This document shows, one piece after another, positions 1 to 38,329 of a stretch of 38,329 nucleotides of DNA. A model generated the notes under the pieces. It was given only the letters and a program-made list of their open reading frames with translations. It was not told where the DNA came from and searched no databases. Source of the stretch: a virus. Within the stretch, counting starts at the first letter, position 1; every line of letters begins with the position of its first letter. The position numbers and the translations under genes are program-made. The DNA is taken from the UHGV virus genome UHGV-1488451; one strand, written 5' to 3'.

Positions 1-72
1 GGACACCCACGCGTCGCCGGACACCCACGCGTCGCCGAACACCCACGCGTCGCCGGACACCCACGCGTCGCC
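1..72 (-). repeat. Four more 18-bp units of the same array at the left window edge
   Basis: Units at 1-18, 19-36, 37-54 and 55-72 encode GDAWVS/GDAWVS/GDAWVF/GDAWVS on the minus strand. Confidence 0.9.
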
Positions 73-124
73 GGACAAGTTCGATTCCTTTTCAATGAAA
101 CCGCCGAGTTCGCCTTTATCCACA
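1..124. repeat. Left copy of imperfect terminal direct repeat (wrap-around of the circular map)
   Basis: nt 1-124 align base-for-base with 38206-38329. By eye there are 3 mismatches (window nt 15, 45, 69) and an exact match over 70-124. Confidence 0.9.
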
Positions 125-222
125 TATCGGCTTGGGATGTTCTCGGTGGCTTGAATACGGTACAGCGTGCGGCCAAAGACCGTGATTGTTTCGTCAGTGA
201 GGCGGTACTTTCTTTCGCTCAT
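1..222 (-). CDS. 5' portion of the same hexapeptide-repeat protein (internal-start version), truncated by the window edge
   Basis: ATG at 222 is preceded by aaaaaggaaagaata (SD-like AAGGAAAG). It encodes MSERKYRLTDETITVFGRTLYRIQATENIPSRYVDKGELGGFIEKESNLS followed by repeats. Confidence 0.75.
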   Translation of the reverse strand, partial: MSERKYRLTDETITVFGRTLYRIQATENIPSRYVDKGELGGFIEKESNLSGDAWVSGDAWVFGDAWVSGDAWVS

Positions 223-645
223 TATTCTTTCCTTTTTGGTGAATCTTTCGATGCATCGGTTGATGTCGTCGATGGTGATGTTTCCCCAGGGTTCGTTGAT
301 GTCCCTGTCAAGTTGCGGGGTTCGTGCGGGGAGTGTTCCTCCTAATGCGTATGGACGTTGGTTGTTTTTTGGGGTGAATTTCATCGGGTGCGGCATGTTG
401 GATGCGCTGGCATGGTTGCTGAAAGTTCCTGGGATGATTTGCAGCAGCCCGACCCCGTGTTCTACTGGGGCGTTTTGGTCTCGAATAGGCGCTATTGCGG
501 GGCCTGATTCGGCTTGGATTTCCTCGAGCACCCGTTTTATGTGGATTGCGTTTAGGATTCTTTGGCAAATGAGAGCTGTTGCTTTGATTTTGAGAAGTTG
601 TTGCATTGCTGTTAGCGGCTCAAAACTGCGGATGGTGTTAGGCAT
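1..645 (-). CDS. Longest version of the same ORF: an SLT-like lytic transglycosylase module (223-645) reads in frame, with no stop, into the repeat protein
   Basis: I translated the frame codon by codon and found no stop from 819 down to nt 1. ATG candidates are at 765, 645 and 606. The 645-223 segment encodes ...EEIQAESGPAIAPIRDQNAPVEHGVGLLQIIPGTFSNH...DRDINEPWGN. It shares E-S-G and the exact 12-aa string GVGLLQIIPGTF with the SLT domain of the tape measure. The true start is uncertain and the SD before 645 is poorly spaced. Confidence 0.45.
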   Translation of the reverse strand, partial: MPNTIRSFEPLTAMQQLLKIKATALICQRILNAIHIKRVLEEIQAESGPAIAPIRDQNAPVEHGVGLLQIIPGTFSNHASASNMPHPMKFTPKNNQRPYALGGTLPARTPQLDRDINEPWGNITIDDINRCIERFTKKERIMSERKYRLTDETITVFGRTLYRIQATENIPSRYVDKGELGGFIEKESNLSGDAWVSGDAWVFGDAWVSGDAWVS

Positions 646-1160: not shown

Positions 1161-1535
1161 ATGAGACACAAAGACTGGGTAGAAAACCTTATTGGCCCCG
1201 ACTCCATGCGCACAGCAGCAGCCAAACTTGGCCTATCCCCCGGCGCAGTGTCCCAGCAGATTAGCCGTGGAAGTTTGAAGCCAGACATGGTGATCGCGCT
1301 TTGCCGCGCTTATGGGCGGTCACCGATTGATGGGCTTGTAGAGACCGGGTTTCTTGAGCGGTTCGAGGCGGGCGCAGCTAGCCCTGCTTCGGCGCTTAGG
1401 GAGGCGACGAATCAGCAGATTCTTGGTGAGATTATGCGGCGTTCCGATGCTGATGCGGTGCGGCTATTTAGGGCTGAGGATGAGGATGTGGCGGTGTCGT
1501 CGCAGGTGAGGGCGGATGGTCCTTACAGTGATTGA
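1161..1535 (+). CDS. Immunity repressor-like HTH DNA-binding protein
   Basis: 124 aa with the HTH-like segment MRTAAAKLGLSPGAVSQQISRGSLKPDMVIALCRAYG. It is divergent from the early array and upstream of the xis/int module. A possible TTGCAT-18-TACGCT promoter would make the mRNA leaderless, which is speculative. Confidence 0.65.
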   Translation: MRHKDWVENLIGPDSMRTAAAKLGLSPGAVSQQISRGSLKPDMVIALCRAYGRSPIDGLVETGFLERFEAGAASPASALREATNQQILGEIMRRSDADAVRLFRAEDEDVAVSSQVRADGPYSD

Positions 1536-31238: not shown

Positions 31239-32378
31239 TCAAAACGGGGGTTTTGCGGCGTTGGAATTGCCGAACCATACACGACTACCCGCCGAGGGGT
31301 TTTCGGGCGTGTGAGGCGGCAATGAGGGCGGATTTGGGGCATTCTCGTTTCGTCTGGCCGCCCGGAGTTGAGCGTATTCCGGTGGGAGGTCCACCGGCTC
31401 GGGGGGTGTCCGATGGTCGCATTTGCGGGCTACGCTGCGGTTTTCCGGCGAATCCGGGTCGATTCCTCGGGTCGGGACCAGGACAAAACCCCGCTCGTCG
31501 CACCACGGGCAAGCGTCGATTTCGGCGCGTCGTGCCTGCTTGGCTTGGGTTTTCTGGTCCTGGAACCAGCGTCTGGCGGCTGCGCAGGCCCCGCAGGGTG
31601 GCACCTGGTCGCGTGGCAGCCCGGCGTGTTCGCGGCATCGGGGGTCATCCGGCGTGGACCAATCGGCGGGTGTGTCGCCGGTCACGGTTGGGGTGTTGGG
31701 GGGCGGCGCGTCAGCGGCCGCCGAACCCTGGTCGAAACTCGGGGCGGGGGCGTGTGCGCTTGCGCTCTCGCTCGGAAGATTTTCTCTCTTAAGCTCCCCT
31801 TTATTGGTATTGGTCGGGCGCAGGTCCGGGCGCGCGCGTCGCGCGCGAGGAGTGGACATGCGGGTGGCGTCCGGGGTGGACATTTCGGCGTTTTCGCTGG
31901 TAGAGGAAAAATCGCTCGACCTATTCGGATTCATTTCGTTTTCATTTCGATTTCGATTCGCGTTCGATTCGGATTCATTTCGATTTCGATTCGGATTCAT
32001 TTCGCGTTCGGATAGGTCGAGCCTCCCTGTTTCAGTATCGGCGTTGCAGCCCCTCCTGCGGGCCTTTGACTCGCGTTCAATACGGCGTCGATTCGAGCGT
32101 TGTTCGCGGGTCTGCTGATAGTCCCCCCAGTCCCTAAAAGTGAACACGATCACACCATTTTCATTGACTGATTGCGTCCACAACCCCGCATCAACAAGCG
32201 CCTGAATCTGAACCGCGCTCCCCCGCAAAGCCCGCACCTGCTGACGAGGAATCACCCCATCAGTCTCAAATTCAGCGCACCAACTCCCAGCCTTCGCCCA
32301 TAAACCCACCGCAGCATTAGGAAGGGAGGAAATCTTAGGATGCGCATGAAAACGGTCGTCAATCATGAACCAGCTCAT
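31239..32378 (-). CDS. Putative replication initiator / DNA-binding protein with internal iteron-encoding low-complexity linker and Cys-rich C-terminus
   Basis: About 379 aa from ATG 32378 (MSWFMIDDRFHAHPK...GLWAKAGSWCAE... wHTH-like N-terminus). The linker is NPNRNRNESESNANRNRNENEMNPNR, and the C-terminus carries CGAC...CPWC motifs. Confidence 0.65.
   Translation of the reverse strand: MSWFMIDDRFHAHPKISSLPNAAVGLWAKAGSWCAEFETDGVIPRQQVRALRGSAVQIQALVDAGLWTQSVNENGVIVFTFRDWGDYQQTREQRSNRRRIERESKARRRGCNADTETGRLDLSEREMNPNRNRNESESNANRNRNENEMNPNRSSDFSSTSENAEMSTPDATRMSTPRARRARPDLRPTNTNKGELKRENLPSESASAHAPAPSFDQGSAAADAPPPNTPTVTGDTPADWSTPDDPRCREHAGLPRDQVPPCGACAAARRWFQDQKTQAKQARRAEIDACPWCDERGFVLVPTRGIDPDSPENRSVARKCDHRTPPEPVDLPPEYAQLRAARRNENAPNPPSLPPHTPENPSAGSRVWFGNSNAAKPPF
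31923..32010. repeat. Iteron-like repeats with 22-bp phasing (candidate origin of replication inside the replication gene)
   Basis: The 16-mer attcggattcatttcg occurs at 31923, 31967 and 31989 (spacing 44 and 22 nt). Degenerate copies and two cgcgttcg motifs lie between them. Confidence 0.6.
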
Positions 32379-32540
32379 TACGCACCGAGTCCAACATTCA
32401 AGCAGACAACACTGATTGACCTGCACGTTTCCTTATCCAGGAACAAGCCGTACCGGCGAACAGCGAAAATGGCGATGCCTTGCGGCGTGAACAAATTCAC
32501 CCATTCAGGTTTCGGGGCATTCATTTCCCTTATCTTTCAT

Positions 32541-32590: not shown

Positions 32591-33028
32591 TTAGAACGGA
32601 GGTTCGCCCGTATCCTGCGGGGTGGCCGGGGGTGAAGAACCCCACGCGCCCCCCTGCTGAGAAGGCGCATACCCAGGGCGCGCCTGCGAACCAGCAACCT
32701 CAACATCAGCCACAGACTGCAACGCATCAACCGCCATGACCTTAATCATCGACCGTTGACTACCGTCCTTGGCTTCCCACTCCTCAGTGACCAGCTTTCC
32801 AACCACCGTGACCTTAGAACCCTTCCTCAGGTAGGACATTGGTTCAGCAGCCTCACCCCACAAGGTGACTTGGATGAACAACTGGTTTGTGGTCTCCCAC
32901 TCACCAGTCGGGGTTTTCCTGCTGTCGGAGCACGCGAGGCGGAAGGTGCTGCATGGTTTGCCGTTGGAGGTGAACCGGAGTTCAGGGTCGCTGACCAGTC
33001 TTCCGGGGAAATGCTGGTACGGAATCAT
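32591..33028 (-). CDS. ssb: Single-stranded DNA-binding protein
   Basis: 145 aa with OB-fold motifs (GRLVSDPELRFTSNGKP...VTLWGEAAE), a Gly/Pro/Gln-rich tail and a terminal acidic EPPF tip. Confidence 0.92.
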   Translation of the reverse strand: MIPYQHFPGRLVSDPELRFTSNGKPCSTFRLACSDSRKTPTGEWETTNQLFIQVTLWGEAAEPMSYLRKGSKVTVVGKLVTEEWEAKDGSQRSMIKVMAVDALQSVADVEVAGSQARPGYAPSQQGGAWGSSPPATPQDTGEPPF

Positions 33029-33894
33029 GGCATGCCTCCCTCGGCTTCGGCCGCGAGGGCTTCCATCTCAGCAAGGGTGTTGTAGCGCTCACTGTAGGCG
33101 TGCTCTGCGGCTTCGCGCTGCGGGTGATCGGCGGGGATTCCCCTGGCTTGCTCGGCCACCGTGTTCAGGTCGTCGATGCTGGCTGCGGTGTTGAATGCCG
33201 CGATGATGCTGTCAACGTCGATCTGTGGTGCCTGCTTGGATTCGAGGGCGGCTTTCACGCCTGAGGCGCCGCGCTGCTGGCGGGGCTTGTCGAGGCGTGT
33301 GGCCTTGGCCTGCACGCGGCTTTCCTCGAGCTGCAAATCCTCAGCCGTGTAGGTGATTCCCAACAACACGTCGGGGGCCAGTTTGCGGCACACCTCGGAT
33401 AGTGCCTTGGCGTAAAGCATGGCTTGCGGGTCGCTTTGGTACTTCTTGTTTGAGGTGTAGCCTGCACGCTTTGCCCGGTCGATGGTCCATGTACTGGTTT
33501 CCTGCTCACCCTTCGGCGAGGTTCCAGTCACCGTGACGCTTTCATCTGTGGACTCAATGGTGTCAAACCTGTAGCCGCGCGCCTTCAAAAGCCCAGACAT
33601 AGTGCGCGCGTAGATCGCGGGTGTGCCGTGCACAACGAAAATCTGCTGCAGGGACTGCAGGGGCTTCAACCCCAATTCAGCACCGTAGAGTATTGCCGCT
33701 GCTCCGTTTTCCGGCTTGCCCTTGTAGGTCTGTGGCACCATGTCGGTGCTGCACAATGCCACCGCTAGTTTGTGGGCGGTTTCCATTGCCTGTGCTTGCC
33801 GCATTAGCAGGTCTATGGCGTCGTCACTGACGTCGCCGGTGGGCATTACCTCAGCCTCGGCGGGTGGGGTGATGCGGTCGATTTCCTGGCTCAC
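33025..33894 (-). CDS. recT: RecT-family single-strand annealing recombinase
   Basis: 289 aa with VPQTYKGKPENGAAAILYGAELGLKPLQSLQQIFVVHGTPAIYA, typical of RecT. Confidence 0.88.
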   Translation of the reverse strand: MSQEIDRITPPAEAEVMPTGDVSDDAIDLLMRQAQAMETAHKLAVALCSTDMVPQTYKGKPENGAAAILYGAELGLKPLQSLQQIFVVHGTPAIYARTMSGLLKARGYRFDTIESTDESVTVTGTSPKGEQETSTWTIDRAKRAGYTSNKKYQSDPQAMLYAKALSEVCRKLAPDVLLGITYTAEDLQLEESRVQAKATRLDKPRQQRGASGVKAALESKQAPQIDVDSIIAAFNTAASIDDLNTVAEQARGIPADHPQREAAEHAYSERYNTLAEMEALAAEAEGGMP

Positions 33895-34322
33895 TGGTTG
33901 CCCTCCTTATTGGGGTTTACGACGTAGATTTCGTAGCCTCGGCCGTAGAACCCGTTGTCTTCGTAGCCTTTGGCGGTGATGATTTCGGTGGCCTTGACTT
34001 CAGACTCTGCCCACACGAACACTCGAACGATGTGGTCGCCGATTGCGTTGTAATCCTGGGTGAGGTCTTCTTCGGCGATCTTCACGCCGGTGATTGCATG
34101 GTCGTAGGGCGCAAGGCGGCTTATCCACCAGTTCCCCGCGCTGCAGCCTCCGCAGCCCTCGTTGCCTACGGTGTAAAGTCGGACACCGTTGTCGAGGATG
34201 AGGGCTTCATCGTCGTCATCGACTTCAACGATTTTACGGCCGATGAGAAGTTCTTTGAGGTCTTCGAGGCTTTCACCATCGATTTTCTTATCCCAGTCGC
34301 CTTCGTAGTGGTTGAAGGTCAT
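33891..34322 (-). CDS. Hypothetical protein (143 aa, CGGC motif)
   Basis: ORF with the SD aaaggag, lying between the exonuclease and recT. I recognise no family. Confidence 0.6.
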   Translation of the reverse strand: MTFNHYEGDWDKKIDGESLEDLKELLIGRKIVEVDDDDEALILDNGVRLYTVGNEGCGGCSAGNWWISRLAPYDHAITGVKIAEEDLTQDYNAIGDHIVRVFVWAESEVKATEIITAKGYEDNGFYGRGYEIYVVNPNKEGNQ

Positions 34323-34579
34323 TGTTCAAGCTCCTTTGCTTCCGTAATGCCGTCTTTGGTGAGCAGGTGGGTTACACCACGGGGGTGGTTGTCCATGTTG
34401 ATTGCGGCGGGCTGGAAAATCCCCACCCATTCGCCGCTTATGTGCTTTTTCACCAGGTCTTGGCACTGCATGTACGTTTCGGCCTGCACCGCCAAGATCA
34501 TGTCAGGGTGGGCGGGCGCCCACTCAGGGTGCGTGTTTTTACGGTACTTCTCGTGAAATATCACGTAAAGGGTTTTCAT
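34319..34579 (-). CDS. Hypothetical protein (86 aa)
   Basis: ORF translationally coupled to its neighbours. I recognise no family. Confidence 0.55.
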   Translation of the reverse strand: MKTLYVIFHEKYRKNTHPEWAPAHPDMILAVQAETYMQCQDLVKKHISGEWVGIFQPAAINMDNHPRGVTHLLTKDGITEAKELEQ

Positions 34580-35586
34580 AGCTTTGCTTTCAGGTTCGGG
34601 CGCAGCATGACCCCACCGCGTGAGGTTGCTGCGCGGGTAGCGATGGTGGTTTCACCCATGAGGGCTTTTTTGGCGTTGCCCATGCGGTCAAGCAGCCTGG
34701 TTTTCGCCGCTGTCGCTGCCTGCGCGGCGGCTTTCTCCATGCGCAGGGCGGTGAGGATTTCTTCGGCCTCGGCAGGGGTGAGCTGCACTTCCTCATCCGG
34801 GTTGATGTCCGTATGCAGGCCCCGCACTGTTTGGTAGGTGCTGGTCGTGTCATCAAGCGGCGGCGGAGTGTCTTCCTGCAGGGATGCCCACCAGCCTTTG
34901 GCCACGTCCACCAGCCCGTCGAACAGGTCAGCGTCCCAGGGGATTTCATGTTCCTCGGCTTGGTGGAACGGCCCCAGCACAAGAACACTTGCCTGGTGAA
35001 TGCCGCTGACTCCCATTTGCCACACCACTTGCGTGTGGTAATCCGCTGGCACACTGTCTGGTTCGCCGGGTTTCCCCCAGTCGTCGAGGCTTCTAGCGGT
35101 TTTGCATTCCAGGATTCGGAATGCCCTGCCCCTGCGTGCCCTGCGGTCGAGTGTGGCCAGGTTGGGGAATGGCAGGTCATCACGGGTGTAGGCGACTTCC
35201 CCGGCGTTTAGTTGCCATGTTTTGGGTTGGCGGCGTGCCCACCAGTCAGCTAGCGCCAACTCGGCGGCGTGCCCCCAGTCCGCAATGTCTTGTTTCATCG
35301 GGGTTGGCGGGATTCGGCCGGCCATTTCGTGCCACAGGGTGTATTGGCTGGTGAATCTGCTGACTCCGAGGATTGCTGGGATTTTCGACGCGGTGATCAT
35401 TCCCCGCCATTCGTCGGAGCCTGGCGGCGGGGGATTCTTGACGGTTCGGCTTGTCATCGTCACAGCACCAGGATTAGCGACAGTGTGAAGATCAGGGTGC
35501 ATAGCGCACCGAGGATTGCGATGCTGATGACTGGTGGTGGTTCTTGGAATCGTTGTGGGGGTTTGCGGTGGGTCATAGTAGTTCAC
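34576..35586 (-). CDS. YqaJ/lambda-exonuclease-like PD-(D/E)xK recombination exonuclease (start uncertain)
   Basis: GSDEWRGMITASKIPAILGVS...WGHAAE...LDRR...ILECKT motifs are present. The N-terminal ~45 aa of the track ORF look like low-complexity leader; the internal Met at aa 44 is possible. Confidence 0.85.
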   Translation of the reverse strand: MNYYDPPQTPTTIPRTTTSHQHRNPRCAMHPDLHTVANPGAVTMTSRTVKNPPPPGSDEWRGMITASKIPAILGVSRFTSQYTLWHEMAGRIPPTPMKQDIADWGHAAELALADWWARRQPKTWQLNAGEVAYTRDDLPFPNLATLDRRARRGRAFRILECKTARSLDDWGKPGEPDSVPADYHTQVVWQMGVSGIHQASVLVLGPFHQAEEHEIPWDADLFDGLVDVAKGWWASLQEDTPPPLDDTTSTYQTVRGLHTDINPDEEVQLTPAEAEEILTALRMEKAAAQAATAAKTRLLDRMGNAKKALMGETTIATRAATSRGGVMLRPNLKAKL

Positions 35587-37727: not shown

Positions 37728-38329
37728 TGGCTTCTCCTTTGTCTTCCTTCTCTGGTTTCCATGATTCGGCGCGAATGGCGATCATGTCGTGGATTGCTTG
37801 GTATTCGGCTTGCCAGCGTTCTTGTGTGGCTTCGTCGTGGCGCTTCCAGTAGTTGGCGCGGCGTTCGGCGACGGCTTGCATCATTGTGGTTAGGGTGCCT
37901 TCCCAGCATCCGATGCAGACGAATATTTCATCGGTTCCGGTGTGCGCCGCAGTTACCCAGCGGCTTTCTACTCCTGCAGGGCCAGCAACGAAGATGTGTT
38001 GTTTTTGGAACACCTCCGCGTTGCCGGACACCCGCGCGTTGCCGGACACCCACGCGTTGCCGGACACCCGCGCGTTGCCGGACACCCACGCGTTGCCGGA
38101 CACCCGCGCGTCGCCGGACACCCACGCGTTGCCGGACACCCACGCGTCGCCGGACACCCACGCGTCGCCGAACACCCACGCGTCGCCGAACACCCGCGCG
38201 TCGCCGGACACCCACGCGTTGCCGGACACCCACGCGTCGCCGAACACCCGCGCGTCGCCGGACACCCACGCGTTGCCGGACAAGTTCGATTCCTTTTCAA
38301 TGAAACCGCCGAGTTCGCCTTTATCCACA
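37699..38329 (-). CDS. Hexapeptide-repeat (beta-solenoid-like) protein of unknown function, 3' portion; the 5' end lies across the window wrap
   Basis: This is a 209-aa ORF running off the window edge. It has the lead-in DKGELGGFIEKESNLS, then 15 hexapeptide repeats, then a non-repeat C-terminal domain with a CIGCW motif. This repeat architecture with an N-terminal YRLTDETI...LYRI lead-in recurs in phage proteins usually annotated as hypothetical or polymer-forming; that statement is from recall, not a search. Confidence 0.8.
   Translation of the reverse strand, partial: VDKGELGGFIEKESNLSGNAWVSGDARVFGDAWVSGNAWVSGDARVFGDAWVFGDAWVSGDAWVSGNAWVSGDARVSGNAWVSGNARVSGNAWVSGNARVSGNAEVFQKQHIFVAGPAGVESRWVTAAHTGTDEIFVCIGCWEGTLTTMMQAVAERRANYWKRHDEATQERWQAEYQAIHDMIAIRAESWKPEKEDKGEANDSDDNDRA
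38008..38277 (-). repeat. 15 x 18-bp head-to-tail tandem repeat array, in-frame coding (hexapeptide G-D/N-A-W/R-V-S/F)
   Basis: The plus-strand unit is ggacacccacgcgtcgcc. 14 of 15 units differ only at unit positions 2 (g/a), 9 (a/g) and 15 (c/t). The last unit, gaacacctccgcgttgcc, encodes GNAEVF. Confidence 0.95.
38206..38329. repeat. Right copy of imperfect terminal direct repeat
   Basis: Counterpart of nt 1-124. The mismatches fall only at the variable positions of the 18-bp repeat unit. Confidence 0.9.

Follow-up and report, generated by a model that had tools for sequence, protein, structure and literature searches.

The nearest solved structure, by sequence, to the protein considered here is that of YdcK from Salmonella (2F9C/2PIG). 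YdcK, found in Salmonella and E. coli, is a 326-amino-acid chromosomal protein of unknown function in which an N-terminal 'KYRL...' domain is followed by G-x-A-x-V-x turns formed by degenerate repeats. Homologues occur in phages, among them gp34 of the Ruminococcus phage phiRM10, orf229 of the Streptococcus phage Sfi19 and gp64 of the Mycobacterium phage Boilgate (PHROG 7964/5070). A variable-number tandem repeat in a prophage gene for a left-handed beta-helix protein is known from the O-acetyltransferase NeuO of prophage CUS-3 in E. coli K1. NeuO makes O-acetylation of the K1 capsule phase-variable (PMC3046976). Its repeat has a 7-nt unit, so that changes in copy number turn the reading frame on and off; the repeat codes for an N-terminal extension lying outside the beta-helix. 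The present analysis concerns an 18-bp tandem array within a YdcK-type gene of the virus genome UHGV-1488451, a temperate siphovirus of human oral microbiome origin; the whole stretch of 38,329 nucleotides that was analysed is referred to as the window. The array is probably an in-frame coding minisatellite forming a beta-helix rod, in which recombination or slippage changes the units while selection fixes the core and keeps a mixed surface. The mechanism is of a known kind and the window provides a new example of it. In the literature, no description was found of the homogenised arrays of this family with their three variable codons, nor of the change of such arrays within near-clonal phage lineages.

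The gene wraps around the ends of the contig. The joined protein has 242 amino acids, made up of 50 N-terminal residues, 15 hexapeptides and a C-terminal domain of 102 residues, encoded as follows.

38008-38277, minus strand: hexapeptide array, allele A, in which 15 18-bp units are read as G-[D/N]-A-[W/R/E]-V-[S/F]; the predicted left-handed beta-helix core
73-222, minus strand: N-terminal 50 codons (MSERKYRLTDETITVFGRTLYRIQATENIPSRYVDKGELGGFIEKESNLS), with the start ATG at 222-220, obtained by circular joining and translation and identical in the relatives P0001 and L076
37699-38007, minus strand: C-terminal domain of 102 codons plus stop, conserved across the family and confidently modelled as mixed beta structure with two helices

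Tandem Repeats Finder (TRF) placed the 18-bp array at 38017-38282, with 14.8 copies, 92% matches and a score of 427, and such an array is far beyond chance expectation. On the coding strand, units 1-14 read GGC-[G/A]AC-GCG-[T/C]GG-GTG-T[C/T]C, with 15 of 18 positions invariant, every third codon position included. Each of the three variable sites is a transition (at codon positions 1, 1 and 2, respectively) and alters the residue (N/D, W/R and S/F); the alleles are present in counts of A7/G7, T9/C5 and C11/T3, respectively. Unit 15 (38008-38025), nearest to the C-terminus, additionally carries GAG (Glu). An initial annotation, made from the sequence alone, had described 15 tandem 18-bp units at 38008-38277, 14 of which vary only at three non-synonymous transition sites. 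This was confirmed, and the plus-strand unit positions given there (2, 9 and 15) map correctly onto the three variable sites. The coding strand is minus, since it is the minus-strand open reading frame (ORF) that has Pfam and homologue support; the plus-strand ORF over the array was discarded as a mirror artefact of this gene. On the other hand, the lack of synonymous variation in this single window did not hold up as a sign of selection. Among the 18 transitions possible in a unit 5 are synonymous, and the chance that three of three sites are non-synonymous is P = (13x12x11)/(18x17x16) = 0.35, which is not significant.

The array was found to differ between nearly identical genomes. Over 20.6 kb, locus L076 shows 14 mismatches to the window (99.9% identity), yet its array has 10 units (MEGAHIT assembly, k119). 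L237 comes from a human oral metagenome; it matches the window at 99.8% over 9.1 kb, and its 9 units follow another order (MEGAHIT, k127). The L076 array consists of window units 1-4 and 10-15, corresponding to a clean 90-bp deletion with its end points in 34 bp of identical direct repeats; its 10-unit protein is also found in GenBank as DAV83705.1. With a second window allele, allele B, one near-clonal lineage thus contains four alleles (window A, allele B, L076 and L237). The differences between these near-identical genomes are whole-unit insertions, deletions and reshuffles, with no point changes. In the close clade, the N- and C-terminal domains are nearly identical and the protein lengths step by six residues. 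The 26 distinct clade arrays, all of them in frame, contain 2, 2, 2, 3, 3, 3, 4, 4, 4, 4, 5, 5, 5, 6, 6, 6, 7, 7, 8, 9, 9, 10, 11, 15, 15 and 16 units, with the flanking DNA of the relatives 92-94% identical. That 2-16 units are tolerated in close relatives argues that the length itself is not critical. The variation in repeat number and unit order that had been suspected from the window is borne out by 15, 10 and 9 units at 99.7-99.9% identity, by allele B and by the range of counts over the 26 arrays.

Array DNA was read from the window and 13 related loci, and the flanks were compared over eight distinct lineages. Every unit at these 14 loci has the backbone GGC-xAC-GCG-xxG-GTG-TxC, and variation is confined to the same three codons. 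The relatives carry Glu, Leu and Tyr as extra alleles at the variable codons; Gln was seen only in a relative known as protein. Flank dS (synonymous divergence) was 0.17-0.35 and flank dN (non-synonymous divergence) 0.03-0.07, with synonymous variation in 49 of 152 flank codons; the dN/dS of about 0.15-0.2 indicates purifying selection. Against this flank dS, not one synonymous difference separates the units, either in the window or in those close relatives for which array DNA was read. The comparison supports the concerted evolution or recent expansion put forward in the initial annotation. The arrays are also polar, with Trp always in the first unit and Glu mostly in the last, which fits the lower turnover of edge units expected under unequal exchange. 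The locus shows each of the properties of an in-frame coding minisatellite: near-identical 18-bp units, polymorphism in their number and order, and units more alike than the flanks predict.

The wider family comprises 7,517 proteins at an E of 1e-10 or better among 8,000 candidates scored. Coding-period tandem arrays of at least 72 nt were detected in 182 of the 236 loci fetched, with up to 54 copies. Out of 115 non-redundant arrays with at least 8 units, 59 matched their own consensus at 90% identity or more. Between them, these arrays have 23 different Gly-Ala-Val codon backbones, which indicates that homogenisation happened many times independently; the same pattern recurs in dozens of independent lineages of the family. 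In the finished genome of the cultured phage phiRM10, gp34 has 25 units with zero synonymous variation, and its units 7-14 are repeated exactly as units 15-22 (L239, 3150-3600). This 144-bp block duplication implies that multi-unit blocks are copied, not only single units. Boilgate gp64, 45% identical, has the same residue pattern with ordinary synonymous variation (CGC/CGG/AGG, GTA/GTT/GTG, GGT/GGC), suggesting that the homogenised arrays are a derived and recurrent state. Homologues with divergent repeats of this ordinary kind had been named beforehand as evidence that would speak against concerted change. None was seen among the close relatives; the distant Boilgate gene is of that kind.

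It was observed that the two classes of codons behave differently in the 59 homogenised arrays. Codons 2, 4 and 6, the variable ones, had a non-synonymous diversity (pN) of 0.20-0.26 and a synonymous diversity (pS) of 0.02-0.05, and the core codons 1, 3 and 5 had a pN of 0-0.02 and a pS of 0.013-0.02. In all but one of the arrays (58 of 59) pN at the variable codons lay above every synonymous measure, and it amounted to about 5-15 times the synonymous diversity. Since unequal exchange homogenises all sites alike, residue polymorphism that survives the erasure of synonymous differences points to selection maintaining heterogeneity at the three codons, and a higher mutation rate there is less likely. 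The same alleles (D/N, W/R/E, S/F) are present in every clade lineage, which indicates that the variants are old and reshuffled, not newly created.

The protein was assigned by family and fold. The Pfam family PF18836, 'YdcK beta solenoid repeat', matched in 6 stretches with 65.3 bits against a cut-off of 30 (E 1.8e-18), and the same family is precomputed for most homologues. The PHROG matches, 7964 and 5070, are both of unknown function. The protein has structural similarity to the solved YdcK structure and a left-handed beta-helix fold with hexapeptide periodicity. The NCBIfam equivalog for YdcK (NF040481) gave 35.4 bits against a 350-bit cut-off, with only residues 19-111 aligned. The protein is thus a relative of YdcK and a member of the YdcK-type beta-solenoid group by Pfam and fold, but not an orthologue of YdcK. 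An acyltransferase identity was not supported: the Pfam Hexapep family PF00132 gave no match at E up to 1, and the NCBIfam models NeuD and GlmU scored 14-15 bits against cut-offs of 160-292. Bactofilin (PF04519, 'polymer-forming cytoskeletal') was rejected, with 19.7 bits against a cut-off of 27.9. The C-terminal domain had no Pfam match, and fold searches with it returned no informative match. In databases, homologues are named 'glycerol kinase', 'putative MFS-type transporter', 'PAPS reductase', 'putative acyltransferase' or 'polymer-forming cytoskeletal protein', none of which is backed by the family tests on this protein.

An AlphaFold model was made for P0001, which has the same flanks and 10 units, as a monomer. 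The mean predicted local distance difference test score (pLDDT) was 72.6, both end domains were confident, and pLDDT was 76-94 over residues 111-190. In the canonical hexapeptide motif, [LIV]-x-x-x-[STAV]-x, positions i and i+4 point into the helix. When the repeat is written V-[S/F]-G-[D/N]-A-[W/R], Val and Ala can be placed on these two positions. The three variable residues, which alternate with them, would then face outward. One 18-bp unit corresponds to one hexapeptide and to one side of the triangular helix. Our guess is that the protein takes part in early host interaction, with the array serving as a rod between the conserved N- and C-terminal domains and with differences in rod length being tolerated; a conserved early position next to the lysogeny switch makes such a role the likeliest guess.

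The mechanism proposed is as follows. Misaligned recombination or replication slippage between near-identical units would add, delete and reshuffle whole units. The same exchange would keep the units identical at the DNA level (concerted evolution), and unit number and order would thereby change much faster than point substitutions accumulate. The single-strand-annealing system of the phage, YqaJ/RecT, may help in the gain and loss of units, as suggested by its presence in the same operon; annealing systems of this type act on short homologies. Purifying selection would hold the Gly, Ala and Val codons, matching the conserved core and turn positions, and selection would maintain the mix of residues at the three positions predicted to be outward (D/N, W/R/E, S/F). 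The three sites described as biallelic would represent old polymorphisms shuffled among units by recombination, instead of new or targeted mutations.

Several points weigh against this proposal. Host RecA or simple polymerase slippage would serve as well as RecT. Under strict concerted evolution, a backbone shared by all lineages is no great surprise, with an estimated P of about 0.07-0.15 when 49 variable flank codons out of 152 are set against 5 codons and the array is taken as one six-codon locus; as proof of an extra constraint, this invariance was not considered decisive. In the AlphaFold model, pLDDT falls below 50 in the second half of the array, which is thus poorly modelled, and residues were assigned as inward or outward from the canonical hexapeptide motif and not from coordinates. 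The order of residues along the array is close to random; no three-unit periodicity was found, with no excess at lag 3 and a weak one at lag 2, and no face-specific pattern of the variable residues is evident. As the 270-bp array was assembled in a k=55-type assembly, part of its unit order could be mis-threaded. The polymorphism in copy number and order was established by comparing assemblies, and some of the copy-number differences could in principle be assembly effects.

An alternative is that the variability itself is adaptive, the outward positions being a binding or recognised surface whose unit number and order are under arms-race diversifying selection, with the array acting as an evolvability device. 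The high ratio of residue to synonymous diversity in 58 of 59 homogenised arrays on 23 backbones fits this explanation, as do the four alleles within one near-clonal lineage and the fact that nearly every relative has a different array between flanks under purifying selection. The position of the gene points the same way, as it is early and close to the switch in distant phages too. In phiRM10, gp34 occupies the same relative place, after the antirepressor and cox and before Gam, a Rad52-type annealing protein and NinB. Host-interaction and anti-defence genes are common in such regions. However, the tiny alphabet shared by all lineages (D/N, W/R/E, S/F) looks more like a balanced composition, the range of 2-16 units in close relatives suggests that length is simply tolerated, and the residue order is nearly random. 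Moreover, a search for anti-phage defence proteins with PADLOC matched 0 families at E up to 0.1, and no literature on the function was found. A requirement for solubility and correct folding of an otherwise perfect repeat would explain the maintained heterogeneity as well as an arms race would. The adaptive alternative is regarded as rather unlikely. The 'selected surface diversification' of the initial annotation stands as far as the excess of residue diversity over synonymous diversity is concerned; the analysis did not show an arms race or reveal a face-specific pattern.

The coding minisatellite was also weighed against an origin in assembly, by which the array, its unit order and its alleles would come from short-read de Bruijn assembly through a repeat longer than k. 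The window breaks inside the array, and its first 72 nucleotides carry four further units. Positions 1-124 match 38206-38329 except at positions 15, 45 and 69, all three on variable sites of the repeat, which indicates a circular genome that was opened inside the array gene. Two further features result from this.

1-72, minus strand: allele B, four units (GDAWVS GDAWVF GDAWVS GDAWVS) joined to the same N-terminal flank; a bubble branch 72 nt (4 units) shorter than allele A
38278-38329, minus strand: second copy of window 73-124 at the end of the contig, covering the final 52 nt of the N-terminal coding flank

The exact matches between the ends are both 55 bp long (1-55 with 38134-38188, and 70-124 with 38275-38329), as would arise from a bubble in a de Bruijn graph at k = 55, where two paths join one pair of nodes. 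Allele A begins GNAWVS GDARVF GDAWVS GNAWVS. By hand comparison, allele B could not be derived from allele A by a single unequal crossover, since no such event reproduces its first unit. Allele B would thus be a separate allele or one several steps removed from allele A, and it is very probable that two or more array alleles with the same flanks were present in the source sample.

An assembly artefact is favoured by the position of the break, by the 55-bp end matches and by the array itself, which contains internal exact repeats of 59 and 57 bp and 8 repeated 55-mers and is ambiguous at k = 55. The contigs of two other relatives also break in the array, and an error-like GGG codon lies near the contig end in L188. 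Nevertheless, at k >= 77 no k-mer is repeated in the 15-unit allele, and L076 and L237 were built at k119 and k127. An identical 16-unit array was recovered from two samples (L156 and NODE-143, the ends of the latter overlapping by a clean 55 bp), and an array of this kind is also present in the finished genome of the cultured phage phiRM10. Arrays of 2-6 units fit well within one read and still differ between relatives, and allele B includes 68 new 55-mers, which would have to come from real reads. Taken together, an origin in assembly is very improbable.

Independent assemblies that end in the array of this gene include L159 with L162 (ERZ773044 NODE-143), L160 with L188 (ODWE01000241.1) and P0121. 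Many contigs from Bartonella (L083-L151) do so as well, a large number of them very short (441-2,800 bp) and with hardly any sequence besides the array. Such arrays, as in the window and the contigs of at least two relatives, are a general breakpoint for short-read assembly of circular phage genomes.

The surroundings of the gene were also analysed. The gene order comprises an integrase, a divergent helix-turn-helix (HTH) repressor, the array gene as the first of the early operon, an HTH_17 gene, the YqaJ exonuclease, RecT, SSB and RusA, followed by terminase, portal, prohead protease, capsid, tail tube, tape measure and lysin genes; part of it (integrase, SSB, RusA and the faint RecT) was read from the gene map of L076. 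Three neighbouring features were recorded.

33025-35586, minus strand: recombination module in the operon of the array gene, with a YqaJ-like exonuclease at 34576-35586 (Pfam YqaJ, 5e-13) and a RecT-like annealing protein at 33025-33894 (faint)
1161-1535, plus strand: divergent HTH repressor-like gene with weak HTH_3 and HTH_1 matches, which marks the lysogeny switch
223-606, minus strand: upstream ORF (MQQLLKIK...KKERI) of 128 codons, in the same frame as the array gene with no stop between them

Some gene callers fuse the upstream ORF to the array gene, as in P0009 (310 amino acids) and P0123 (GenBank DAV83705.1, 393 amino acids). Relative L078 has a separate upstream gene, with a 4-bp overlap at the start of the array gene. 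The upstream ORF was considered as a lytic transglycosylase and had no Pfam match. Exact searches of IMG/VR with the flanks gave no match, and the contig from which the window derives is thus absent from that collection. No close prophage was found from which the host could be named, the best match of a genome scan being 44% identical; the human oral sample and the Gordonia and Rhodococcus tape-measure fragments lead to the guess that the host is an oral actinobacterium.

A second tandem repeat lies at 31912-32032, with an 11/22-bp period (ATTCGGATTCATTTCG...) and a TRF score of 106. It is located inside a minus-strand ORF of 395 amino acids (31239-32426) without a Pfam match, between SSB and RusA, and could be an iteron-type replication origin inside an initiator gene. 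An early gene can have a replication origin within it, as the lambda O gene does. That precedent, together with the invariance of the backbone across lineages with diverged flanks, would suit an explanation in which the 18-bp repeats of the array act as DNA, as iterons or operator sites, and owe their identity to selection for DNA binding. Yet close relatives differ in unit number from 2 to 16, the same peptide pattern is encoded by quite different DNA backbones in other lineages, and Boilgate keeps the peptide repeat without a DNA-level repeat. As the repeat at 31912-32032 is also the better iteron candidate, a function of the array as DNA is hardly credible.

Writing of the three codons by a targeted or programmed process (a retroelement resembling a diversity-generating retroelement, a cassette donor or site-specific inversion) would account for variation that is limited to three codons in otherwise identical units, but it can practically be dismissed, because no reverse transcriptase was found among the annotated or scanned window genes, the sole recombinase is a tyrosine integrase beside the repressor (the lysogeny integrase), neither a template copy of the unit outside the array nor inverted repeats of at least 30 nt occur in the window, the coding-strand changes (G/A, T/C and C/T) are not adenine-specific, near-identical genomes differ by whole-unit indels and reshuffles, and the same pattern is found in many unrelated phage genomes of different gene content. 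A shufflon or invertible segment was rejected on the same integrase and inverted-repeat findings. The initial annotation was right that neither a diversity-generating retroelement nor a shufflon is present; its suggestion of 'programmed' diversification was not upheld.

For the in-frame coding minisatellite, some consequences can be drawn. A very widespread early phage protein carries a rod with rapidly changing length and surface. The array is a ready strain marker for the oral phage, as it changes while the genome stays 99.8-99.9% identical. The retention of residue diversity at three codons with erasure of synonymous diversity offers a testable signature of selection on a repeat under concerted evolution, and marks the protein as a candidate host-interaction factor. 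As a speculative extension, which we consider doubtful, the YdcK-like early phage proteins, of which public data contain more than 7,500 relatives, might be a general hypervariable module with homogenised units and a reshuffled surface alphabet. The module would be located in the early region for host takeover, in phages of Actinobacteria, Firmicutes, Proteobacteria and Bacteroidetes. Each phage strain would then get its own rod surface and length, and if that surface were sensed by host defence or bound by a host target, the module would be a recombination-driven generator of diversity without a retroelement.

Some observations on the annotation of related records were made. GenBank labels the homologous hexapeptide array of Vibrio phage 1.209.O (L238, MG592579.1, 1658-1971, and also MG592510.1) as five 'CRISPR spacers'. 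The gene there appears frameshifted in the array, and the annotated coding sequence begins mid-array. Four metagenome and IMG/VR relatives (L213, L027, L231 and L232) have a consensus array unit with TAG at the fourth codon, which could be an artefact of mixing TGG with AAG or CAG, or could come from amber-recoded phages. The homologue matches include 12 Liberibacter phage records; the Liberibacter 'hyv' genes are described as autotransporters.

Compared with YdcK, the window protein shares the N-terminal domain and the turns that follow it, and differs in its C-terminal domain and in a perfect array at the DNA level. The phage homologues of phiRM10, Sfi19 and Boilgate have the same three-part architecture and early-region position; they are 41-45% identical, use other codon backbones and have no described function. 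Among these, phiRM10 gp34 comes close to the window, since its array is homogenised in the same way and varies at none but the same three codons. The resemblance to NeuO lies in a variable-number tandem repeat in a prophage left-handed beta-helix protein. Unlike the NeuO repeat, the window array has an 18-nt unit, stays always in frame and forms the helix itself, and NeuO is an enzyme whereas the window protein has no Hexapep or acyltransferase match. A phase-variable contingency locus of the NeuO type was rejected, as 18 nt is divisible by 3 and the 26 clade arrays keep the frame. Diversity-generating retroelements likewise concentrate residue variation in a few codons of a phage gene, but the window array comes without the reverse transcriptase, template repeat or adenine specificity of such elements and changes by what appears to be whole-unit recombination. 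Finally, other solenoid arrays under concerted evolution have near-identical coding repeats maintained by unequal exchange, a fixed core and a variable copy number, as is the case here. Those arrays belong to cellular proteins with a known surface function, whereas the present one belongs to an early phage protein, and here the combination of invariant synonymous sites with polymorphic surface codons recurs across many lineages.

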